Assembly: GCA_039934295.1 (NCBI GenBank)
Contig: JBDTMN010000003.1
Coordinates: 10,625 to 74,624 of the forward strand
Origin: Candidatus Tayloriibacteriota bacterium
Lineage (GTDB): Bacteria; Patescibacteriota; Minisyncoccia; Phycocordibacterales; HO2-43-120
Length of the DNA: 64,000 nucleotides
Reading direction: 5' to 3'
Shown: piece after piece, positions 32,013-32,696 of the stretch
How the letters are laid out: every line of letters starts with the position of its first letter
Position numbering within the stretch: position 1 is the first letter of the stretch
The notes under the pieces: model-generated
Databases searched by the model: none
The model's input: only the letters and a program-made list of their open reading frames with translations
Told to the model about the DNA's origin: nothing
Made by a program: the position numbers and the translations under genes

Positions 32013-32696
32013 TCATTCAAATAAAGATTCTAGACCTGATAAGGAACCTAAAATTTTGCAATGAATGTCCGCCCCCCTCCTTACTTTTACTCTTAATGTC
32101 CCAAAATGTTCATTTTCGTTGGAATATCTTTTTTTACTCTGAGTTTTTATTAGACTTGGCTTTGTAAACTGAGCAGTTGGAATCTTAATCAAATCTGACC
32201 AATAGTGCATTACTTCAGCAACTCGTTTTGAATGTATATTATTTATGCTTATCCTTAAAATAAAATCCTGAATAGCTACCTCGTAGAAAGTCTGAAACCA
32301 TTTAATGATCAATTTAATCATAAAGGGATTGCTATTTGTGAATCCCACTTCATCGTTCCCTCTTTTATATCCCTCTCCCCAATAGAGTGCCAAACCTATA
32401 AAAAAGAACTCCTTCTTTGTCAGTTGCCCAATTTCTTTTTTACCTTGCGTTGTCAACTGTTCAACCTTTTTTAATCTTTCAGCCCGTTTTTTTTCTAAAA
32501 ATTTTAGTATCGCCTTCATTCCGGCTTTCTTTTGTTTTTCTTGAATATAAAGCAATTGTTGCTTTGATAAGACAATGTCTCTGCACCAATATCCGATAGT
32601 GCTTTTGCTCACTTTTATCTCTGTTGCGATATCTTGAATACTCAAGCCTTCCCTTCTTAATTTTTGAGCTGCTTCTCTTAGATAAATGTTCGCCAT
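32013..32696 (-). CDS. Putative free-standing homing endonuclease: N-terminal HTH plus single LAGLIDADG-like motif
   Basis: HTH REGLSIQDIATEIKVSKSTIGYW; C-terminal domain with FFIGLALYWGEGYK (LAGLIDADG-like, with the GEG acidic residue). Sits between a tRNA(CAU) and the intron-containing tRNA(CAU). Confidence 0.4.
   Translation of the reverse strand: MANIYLREAAQKLRREGLSIQDIATEIKVSKSTIGYWCRDIVLSKQQLLYIQEKQKKAGMKAILKFLEKKRAERLKKVEQLTTQGKKEIGQLTKKEFFFIGLALYWGEGYKRGNDEVGFTNSNPFMIKLIIKWFQTFYEVAIQDFILRISINNIHSKRVAEVMHYWSDLIKIPTAQFTKPSLIKTQSKKRYSNENEHFGTLRVKVRRGADIHCKILGSLSGLESLFE

Follow-up and report, generated by a model that had tools for sequence, protein, structure and literature searches.

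Phage T4 carries within its tRNA gene cluster a free-standing GIY-YIG endonuclease, SegB, which cuts the corresponding region of a related genome and so promotes inheritance of its own tRNA region. The conserved, free-standing bacterial protein WhiA, which acts as a transcription factor, has two degenerate LAGLIDADG domains that have lost their catalytic acidic residues, followed by a C-terminal helix-turn-helix (HTH). Homing driven by an endonuclease encoded outside the intron (trans homing) is a well-established route (review PMC3984707). Collaborative cases are the free-standing F-CphI beside the psbA intron of cyanophage S-PM2, which lacks an open reading frame (ORF), and T4 mobE/I-TevIII; in both, the site of intron insertion is what the endonuclease targets (PMC3984707, PMC6083498, PMC2790892). 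In cyanobacteria, a tRNAfMet intron at position 33/34 encodes a PD-(D/E)XK endonuclease (PMC13011429). Nakagawa et al. catalogued tRNA introns of Patescibacteria, including one at 33/34 of tRNA-Met(CAU); most carry no intron-encoded endonuclease, from which limited mobility was inferred, and their persistence in streamlined genomes was left unexplained (PMC13011429). The text of that paper makes no mention of a neighbouring HTH gene. Here we analyzed a 64,000-nt stretch (the window) of contig JBDTMN010000003.1 from a Candidatus Tayloriibacteriota bacterium, in which ORF 32013-32696 encodes an HTH protein beside an intron-split tRNA(CAU) gene. The protein may act on tRNA genes as a free-standing homing endonuclease and mobilize the ORF-less intron in trans, a proposal whose chances we consider even.

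The locus shares some features with each of these systems. Like SegB, the candidate is a free-standing gene among tRNA genes; SegB differs in its enzyme family, in being a phage protein, and in having no intron partner. As in cyanobacteria, the host gene is tRNAfMet(CAU) and the intron lies at 33/34, but the cyanobacterial enzyme is intron-encoded and of another nuclease family, whereas the intron in the window is ORF-less and the candidate enzyme is encoded outside it, on the opposite strand. F-CphI and mobE/I-TevIII belong to phages and to protein-coding genes and involve Endo VII-like or HNH enzymes; the window case concerns a cellular chromosome, the essential initiator tRNA, and a putative LAGLIDADG-like enzyme, and the pairing recurs in hundreds of species. 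Like WhiA, the candidate is a conserved, free-standing bacterial protein that joins an apparently LAGLIDADG-derived domain to an HTH; unlike in WhiA, the HTH is N-terminal, there is one such domain, and its Glu is invariant. Free-standing homing endonucleases and trans homing are thus known kinds, and the setting and the unannotated family are new; our literature search found no paper on the family or on its linkage. The gene and its immediate neighbours are as follows.

32013..32696, minus strand: gene for a 227-aa HTH plus putative divergent LAGLIDADG-like protein (ORF listing), stop codon at 32013-32015
32589..32681, minus strand: predicted N-terminal HTH, residues 6-36 (Pfam HTH_38; AlphaFold2 [AF2])
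32430..32564, minus strand: predicted long single helix, residues 45-89, joining the HTH to the C-terminal domain (AF2 helix 45-89, predicted local distance difference test score [pLDDT] 85-95)
32016..32417, minus strand: C-terminal domain, residues 94-227, candidate single-motif LAGLIDADG-type nuclease domain (profile matches to I-DmoI)
32364..32396, minus strand: motif GLALYWGEGYK, residues 101-111, placed by profile alignment on KGLYVAEGDK, the second LAGLIDADG motif of I-DmoI
31906..31981, minus strand: intact elongator-type tRNA(CAU) (ARAGORN; Rfam tRNA, 65 bits)
32789..33165, plus strand: initiator-type tRNA(CAU) split by a group I intron (ARAGORN with intron option; Rfam RF00028)
32789-32820, 32821-33125, and 33126-33165, plus strand: exon 1, intron, and exon 2 of that tRNA
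32721..32779, both strands: back-to-back promoter-like hexamer pairs in the 92-bp spacer (consensus scan)

ORF 32013-32696, which has an ATG start in the ORF listing, is a real, conserved gene, since its product is 100% identical to MEO8637513.1 from a Candidatus Taylorbacteria metagenome-assembled genome (MAG), annotated as hypothetical, has 333 relatives at an E value of ≤1e-3 in a 90%-clustered protein collection, and has a relative encoded in 441 GTDB species genomes. Nearly all of the relatives are ∼225 aa long, are 45 to 57% identical over their full length, and come from Parcubacteria/Microgenomates-type MAGs. The original prediction described the protein as an HTH plus a LAGLIDADG-like endonuclease domain. 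Its first half stands: the predicted N-terminal HTH is solid, based on a Pfam HTH_38 match at residues 6-36 (28.0 bits against a cutoff of 27, with HTH_23 and HTH_7 weaker), HTH_23 matches in all 49 of the relatives scanned (down to E 7e-08), and three short helices at residues 2-37 in the AF2 model. The long helix that follows may serve in dimerization.

The tRNA(CAU) at 31906-31981 lies 31 bp downstream of the gene and is co-oriented with it, as is likewise the case in ∼20 loci of the main clade and for all assessable paralogues. On the other side, 92 bp separate the start of the ORF from the 5′ end of the split tRNA(CAU), which is transcribed divergently. ARAGORN run with its intron option (-i) reported tRNA-Met(cat) i(33,305), that is, a 305-nt intron between positions 33 and 34, and RF00028 matched 32811-33089 on the plus strand with 48.3 bits (gathering score, 50; E 2.5e-10); orthologous introns of relatives scored 67.4 and 53.9 bits. 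Based on the group I rule (U| at the end of the 5′ exon, G| at the end of the intron), we set the boundaries on the sequence so that the exons join to a 7-nt loop, CU|CAUAA. The ORF list contains no ORF of ≥60 aa within the intron. A mismatch at 1:72 together with A11:U24 is the textbook mark of a bacterial initiator tRNA. Orthologues of the split tRNA carry A1xA72 or C1xA72 along with A11:U24, and we infer from this that it is tRNAfMet, although the window copy has U1-A72. The original prediction had the gene sandwiched between a tRNA(CAU) and an intron-containing tRNA(CAU); both neighbours were found, with the correction that the intron-containing one is on the plus strand and divergent. The promoter-like hexamer pairs in the spacer run from 32748 to 32721 on the minus strand, for the ORF, and from 32751 to 32779 on the plus strand, ending 10 bp before the tRNA. 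Their number is not above shuffle expectation, so only their position is suggestive.

Synteny with an intron-split tRNAfMet across genomes is the strongest result of this work. We fetched 80 genome loci carrying the gene and collected 88 full-length family ORFs. In 69 of the 80 loci, ARAGORN found an intron-containing tRNA 72 to 150 bp upstream of the gene (two at 247 and 314 bp), divergent from the gene in 66 cases and co-oriented in 3. Six loci that had appeared to be exceptions (L009, L048, L054, L076, L066, and L083) proved on inspection to have the intron-containing tRNA as well, bringing the total to at least 75 of 80; the other 5 comprise 4 with too little upstream sequence and 1 (L074) with a split ORF. 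In at least 75 of the 80 loci, therefore, a family gene stands beside an ORF-less intron, which is the arrangement of a collaborative pair. ARAGORN called some of the upstream intron-containing tRNAs as Leu, Ser, Arg, or Glu; we rejected these calls as intron-boundary artefacts because the exons are all the same (NGCGGGG...AGGCU / ...CCCCGCAAC), making every one of them a tRNA(CAU).

The intron itself varies. Among the 78 of 88 family ORFs with an intron-split tRNAfMet, the intron is at 33/34 in 62 and at 36/37 (CUCAU|AA) in 16, and blastn found no cross-match between the two kinds. Proteins beside different intron types are up to 60% identical, at least as high a value as the 53% found within a type. 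One protein clade accompanies both intron positions, which favours the tRNA gene as the partner over any particular intron RNA. In an independent sample of metagenomic tRNAfMet genes, the ORF was present upstream of 4 of 7 interrupted genes and of 1 of 26 intron-less genes with a Patescibacteria-like anticodon stem (Fisher P = 0.004); this two-by-two control is rough because the broad tRNAfMet DNA pattern applied to the metagenomes mostly caught other phyla.

Comparison of closely related loci revealed a clean presence/absence polymorphism of the gene. L178 matches L153 and L043 over 2.4 kb of flank (74% identity) and has the same intron-containing tRNAfMet, but it has 76 bp where they have ∼760 bp; the difference is exactly the family gene. 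L170 shows the same contrast with L021 and L014, keeping the intron-containing tRNA and lacking the gene, and the indels between gene-bearing and gene-less loci are ∼700 to 760 bp in size. In L166, tRNA-Met and tRNA-Asp come straight after the intron-containing tRNA, and there is no family gene. Second copies of the gene occur in L006, L014, L056, L072, and L118, giving two paralogues per locus, and split or frameshifted copies occur in L074 and for one copy in L118.

Paralogue clades and distant members are not beside introns. Each of 10 such genes directly precedes a co-oriented tRNA at a distance of 0 to 155 bp, often with overlap: 5 of 5 assessable paralogues precede tRNA-Met(CAU), P0215, P0162, and P0221 precede tRNA-Met(CAU), and P0263 and WP_019629257 of Actinomadura atramentaria precede tRNA-Gln(UUG). 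In several database members, the C-terminal tail resembles a translated tRNA gene. One paralogue clade is found at L006 (the same as L001) 1720-2409 on the minus strand, L118 5322-6047, and L072 845-1546, directly 5′ of an elongator-type tRNA-Met(CAU); L125 and L202 belong to this clade and lie beside an intron-less tRNAfMet. In Actinomadura and Allonocardiopsis, two HTH-plus-domain units are fused in one chain, as in the two-unit gene of A. atramentaria (L211, KB907208.1, 2501-4183), which is 44 bp 5′ of tRNA-Gln(UUG), and in P0251 of Allonocardiopsis opalescens. The step from homodimer to pseudodimer is familiar from LAGLIDADG enzymes, and these tandem forms appear to mirror it.

The C-terminal domain has no Pfam model and belongs to a large, unannotated family, with 3,499 clusters at an E value of ≤1e-3 in a profile search of 1.84 billion representatives. 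Based on its profile matches, which are marginal statistically, it is probably a single-motif LAGLIDADG domain that is strongly derived and extended at its C terminus. For profiles A4 and A5, built from diverse family members, I-DmoI was the top sequence among 177,635 in the PDB (E 0.0024 to 0.0048); with A5, seven deposited I-DmoI variants fell within this range, and the next unrelated PDB match had an E value of 0.12. The A4 and A5 matches span I-DmoI residues 87-179 and 104-148, respectively, the latter comprising the second LAGLIDADG motif and the subsequent hairpin and helix, on which GLaLYWgEGsK...ftNSDPeliklilkWl was aligned (KGLYVAEGDKTLK-RLRIWNKNKALLEIVSRWL). An hhalign comparison with the LAGLIDADG_3 family alignment of another gene in the window, ORF 919-1617, gave a register identical to that of the I-DmoI match (P 0.03), and one distant member (P0254) had a faint, below-threshold match to PF14528 in the motif register (E 0.043).

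E108, aligned to the catalytic Glu of I-DmoI, and G109 are invariant in 88 of 88 family ORFs, and K111 is found in 81 of 88. The Glu, Gly, and Lys of the motif are likewise invariant in the diverse alignments A4 and A5, and E108 and G109 also in A1, which, like A2, was built from close relatives only. In the AF2 models, which are confident (pLDDT 89.4 at full length; 88.4, with a predicted template modeling [TM] score, pTM, of 0.83, for residues 88-227), E108 is at the C-terminal end of helix 94-108, an acidic residue followed by Gly, as in LAGLIDADG motif helices. The likeness to I-DmoI and I-CreI-type enzymes thus consists of a motif helix ending in Glu-Gly, then a short hairpin and a helix, aligning over 45 to 90 residues with the second domain of I-DmoI. 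Like I-CreI-type single-motif enzymes, the protein has one motif per chain, which would imply a dimer, and tandem two-copy relatives exist. It differs from both in being unrecognized by Pfam LAGLIDADG_1/2/3 or Foldseek, in having a predicted extra helix and a C-terminal b-b-a extension of ∼55 residues, in its N-terminal HTH and long helix, and in being free-standing rather than intron- or intein-encoded.

Several results weigh against a LAGLIDADG homing endonuclease. The window protein matched no Pfam LAGLIDADG model at an E value of ≤10, in the same scan in which ORF 919-1617 scored E 1.3e-10 for LAGLIDADG_3, and LAGLIDADG models were absent from the 25 Pfam families most matched by 49 close and 27 diverse members; LAGLIDADG_WhiA had no match in any of these scans. 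The I-DmoI match is itself marginal, with E values of ∼2e-3 and a single protein behind it. Foldseek searches of the PDB and BFVD with AF2 models of the full-length protein and of the domain gave no significant neighbour and no LAGLIDADG entry among the best 50 matches (best TM, ∼0.4). The predicted topology, a-b-a-b-a-b-b-a, does not match the textbook a-b-b-a-b-b-a core. At L125 and L202, the motif Glu-Gly-x-Lys is kept, yet the adjoining tRNAfMet is intron-less and has an anticodon arm essentially the same as that of the spliced window tRNA; cutting of every intron-less tRNAfMet therefore fails for that clade, which would cut elsewhere or not at all. The family clusters by host lineage, with Microgenomates apart from Parcubacteria, and is broadly conserved, which looks more vertical and constrained than a purely selfish gene and leaves room for partial domestication. 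A tblastn search of phage and plasmid collections found no relatives.

Searches of Pfam, NCBIfam, and PHROGs with the single protein gave no LAGLIDADG similarity; phmmer and hmmsearch against the PDB with the protein and with profiles A1 and A2 returned nothing LAGLIDADG, and hhalign found nothing with I-CreI or with ORF 919-1617 alone. Among the Foldseek matches, a few homing-endonuclease or intein proteins appeared at E ∼1 only, and IspF and OmpA-like matches (TM, ≤0.38) were rejected as generic alpha/beta sandwiches. The LAGLIDADG half of the original prediction is, read literally, refuted by the negative Pfam and Foldseek results, softened solely by the I-DmoI match at E ∼0.002.

We propose that an N-terminal HTH, a long helix, and one very divergent LAGLIDADG-type catalytic domain make up an enzyme that would probably work as a homodimer, with E108 as its metal-binding acidic residue. 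Such an enzyme would recognize and cut tRNA-gene DNA in genomes without the family gene, and recombinational repair would then copy the endonuclease gene into the cut genome. In the main Patescibacteria clade, which includes the window, its partner would be the initiator tRNA(CAU) gene. Interruption of the likely target by the ORF-less group I intron of the anticodon loop would protect the resident tRNA gene, and the intron, lying ∼90 bp from the endonuclease gene, would be co-converted with it (collaborative, or trans, homing). The DNA of the anticodon arm, GGAGG-CTCATAA-CCTCC, is a pseudo-palindrome, and the 33/34 and 36/37 intron sites are symmetrical about its centre. A pseudo-palindrome is the kind of site favoured by homodimeric LAGLIDADG enzymes, which is suggestive of a target at the insertion site. 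The original prediction had suggested that the gene targets tRNA genes and could be a homing helper encoded outside the intron. The genomic context favours this idea (synteny in at least 75 of 80 loci, a tRNA next to 10 of 10 outlying members, presence/absence of the gene, and the invariant Glu); a homing helper outside the intron is the best-supported explanation, and this candidate activity stands in our estimate at about an even chance.

The same tRNA cluster contains further features, and a second free-standing endonuclease gene lies elsewhere in the window.

30776..31088, minus strand: tRNA-Asp(GUC) split by a group I intron of ∼240 nt at 35/36 (RF00028; exons from sequence)
33206..33378, plus strand: structured element after tRNAfMet (repeat D1; minimum free energy, -69.5 kcal/mol; z -6.9)
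31762..31905, minus strand: analogous element after tRNA-Met(CAU), ending in that tRNA's 3′-end copy (repeat D2; fold z -3.5)
30594..30745, minus strand: structured element after tRNA-Asp
919..1617, minus strand: second free-standing endonuclease gene, a true LAGLIDADG_3 (Pfam PF14528, E 1.3e-10)

The tRNA-Asp intron was missed by ARAGORN and matched RF00028 at 30821-31051 with 43 bits, below the gathering threshold; 35/36 in tRNA-Asp is an unusual intron site described for Patescibacteria (Nakagawa et al. 2026, PMC13011429). Each of the three tRNAs of the cluster is followed, 144 to 210 bp downstream, by a copy of ∼20 to 25 nt of its own 3′ end (31761-31785 for tRNA-Met, 33357-33387 for tRNAfMet, and 30593-30613 for tRNA-Asp). 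Across loci, such copies lie downstream of 16 of 159 tRNAs by a strict and 25 of 171 by a looser count and upstream of 0 of 159. They form one end of the structured elements, which are ∼120 to 190 nt long and have fold z-scores of -6.9, -7.4, and -3.5. Because the 5′ part of an element is antisense to the acceptor/T-arm 3′ sequence of the tRNA and its 3′ end is the sense copy, the two ends would pair into a long acceptor-plus-T-like stem closing a multihelix core. Elements after tRNAfMet could be aligned in nine genomes (the window, L018, L021, L024, L027, L029, L032, L034, and L046), and 34 of the 52 base pairs in a consensus fold built from six of these show compensatory changes. The motif GGTRTACTGAAnnTGTAR is common to the element after the window tRNA-Met and to elements after tRNA-Met and tRNA-Asp elsewhere. 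Rfam had no match at the elements, and we dropped a reading of the downstream element as a known ribozyme, hammerhead-like or otherwise. A conserved, covarying structured element thus accounts for the partial tRNA copies, which form its 3′ ends and are not haphazard scars; the original prediction that the endonucleases promote local tRNA rearrangements is not supported as it was put. The element may be an RNA that mimics a tRNA end or a miniature element that duplicates the 3′ end of the tRNA.

The identification of a LAGLIDADG gene at 919-1617 beside tRNA-Leu was borne out: its last ∼15 codons overlap the co-oriented tRNA-Leu(CAG) at 881-965 (minus strand), it has 1,882 relatives, and 3 of 3 examined abut tRNA-Leu(CAG). 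An endonuclease gene directly 5′ of a co-oriented intact tRNA, also part of the original prediction, is a general property of both families. Of the two tRNAs that these endonuclease genes precede, tRNA-Met has the expected partial copy of its 3′ end downstream; what follows tRNA-Leu, at ∼843-869, is a T-arm/acceptor fragment of a different tRNA. Among small ORFs just past the tRNA cluster are direct repeats of ∼160 nt, at 33897-34055 and 34449-34607 (89% identity; both copies hold the translated stretch LRGEELPCFYIFLILESRFLNQPYRHEQ) and at 28457-28615 and 29784-29940 (76%). An ARAGORN "tRNA-???" at 50641-50731 (minus strand), with a 2-nt anticodon, was rejected as unsupported by the Rfam tRNA model; the region has hairpins and terminator-like repeats, and GCCGACATTTCTTAATGTCGGC occurs twice in it. 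In the 2-kb bin 42001-44000, GC skew is +0.315, against about -0.1 elsewhere, and GC content is raised to 0.49.

Three other roles for the ORF 32013-32696 protein deserve weighing. It could be a domesticated DNA-binding regulator which, like WhiA, uses a LAGLIDADG-derived domain and an HTH as a scaffold and which would control the divergent tRNAfMet, the downstream tRNA, and its own gene from the 92-bp promoter region. The HTH is the sole statistically solid domain, promoter-like sites stand back to back in the spacer, Foldseek found no nuclease fold, and high conservation broadly along host lineage would suit a regulator. Degenerate LAGLIDADG scaffolds, however, usually lose the catalytic Glu, and the Glu aligned to that of I-DmoI is invariant in all 88 ORFs, from Patescibacteria to Actinobacteria. 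The gene is also cleanly missing from close relatives that keep both tRNA and intron, and it has several paralogues beside different tRNAs as well as pseudogenes, both typical of selfish genes. We consider a regulator unlikely.

Tight linkage to an intron-containing tRNA could equally reflect a maturase, a trans-acting splicing cofactor that binds the group I intron RNA of tRNAfMet, aids its folding, and keeps the essential initiator tRNA working in a reduced genome. LAGLIDADG maturases are known, one of them bacterial (PMC3984707), the window intron scores just under the Rfam gathering score (48.3 against 50), and such a function would explain long-term conservation. Yet L170, L178, and L166 keep the intron-split tRNAfMet without an adjacent gene, introns of two lineages, at two positions and with no blastn cross-match, are paired with one protein clade, and paralogues and distant members adjoin intron-less tRNAs. 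The HTH and the conserved Glu of catalytic type suggest action on DNA, and those Patescibacteria tRNA introns that have been tested splice themselves in vitro (PMC13011429), making a maturase seem quite unlikely. It is very unlikely, finally, that the protein acts at the level of RNA or single-stranded DNA, on tRNA or on the elements that mimic tRNA ends, as a processing, decoy, or recombination factor and not as a classical homing enzyme. Elements with antisense and sense tRNA 3′ ends do follow 25 of 171 tRNAs (upstream, 0 of 159), and the gene family and the elements share tRNA clusters; elements are, however, also carried by contigs on which we saw no family gene (L120, L138, L165, and L192), a detectable element is missing from most gene-bearing loci, and nothing points to RNA binding.

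If the trans-homing proposal is true, a conserved endonuclease encoded outside an initiator-tRNA intron in hundreds of species would answer the question of how such introns persist, and the family would be the "missing" mobility enzyme for tRNA introns thought to have none. It would also be the first cellular, tRNA-gene case of trans homing, a process so far known from phages. A still broader reading, which we regard as very unlikely, is a phylum-wide, tRNA-specialized, divergent LAGLIDADG branch (∼3,500 clusters at 50% identity, extending into Actinobacteria) that drives or maintains ORF-less introns in trans, with the structured elements, as folded double-stranded mimics of the tRNA gene end, belonging to that mobility or recombination system, for example as substrate or decoy. 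The family follows a simple genomic rule, a place beside a tRNA gene, and has members in culturable Actinomadura, so that the actinobacterial proteins are open to testing. If active, the family members would be potential new sequence-specific nucleases with tRNA-gene targets.

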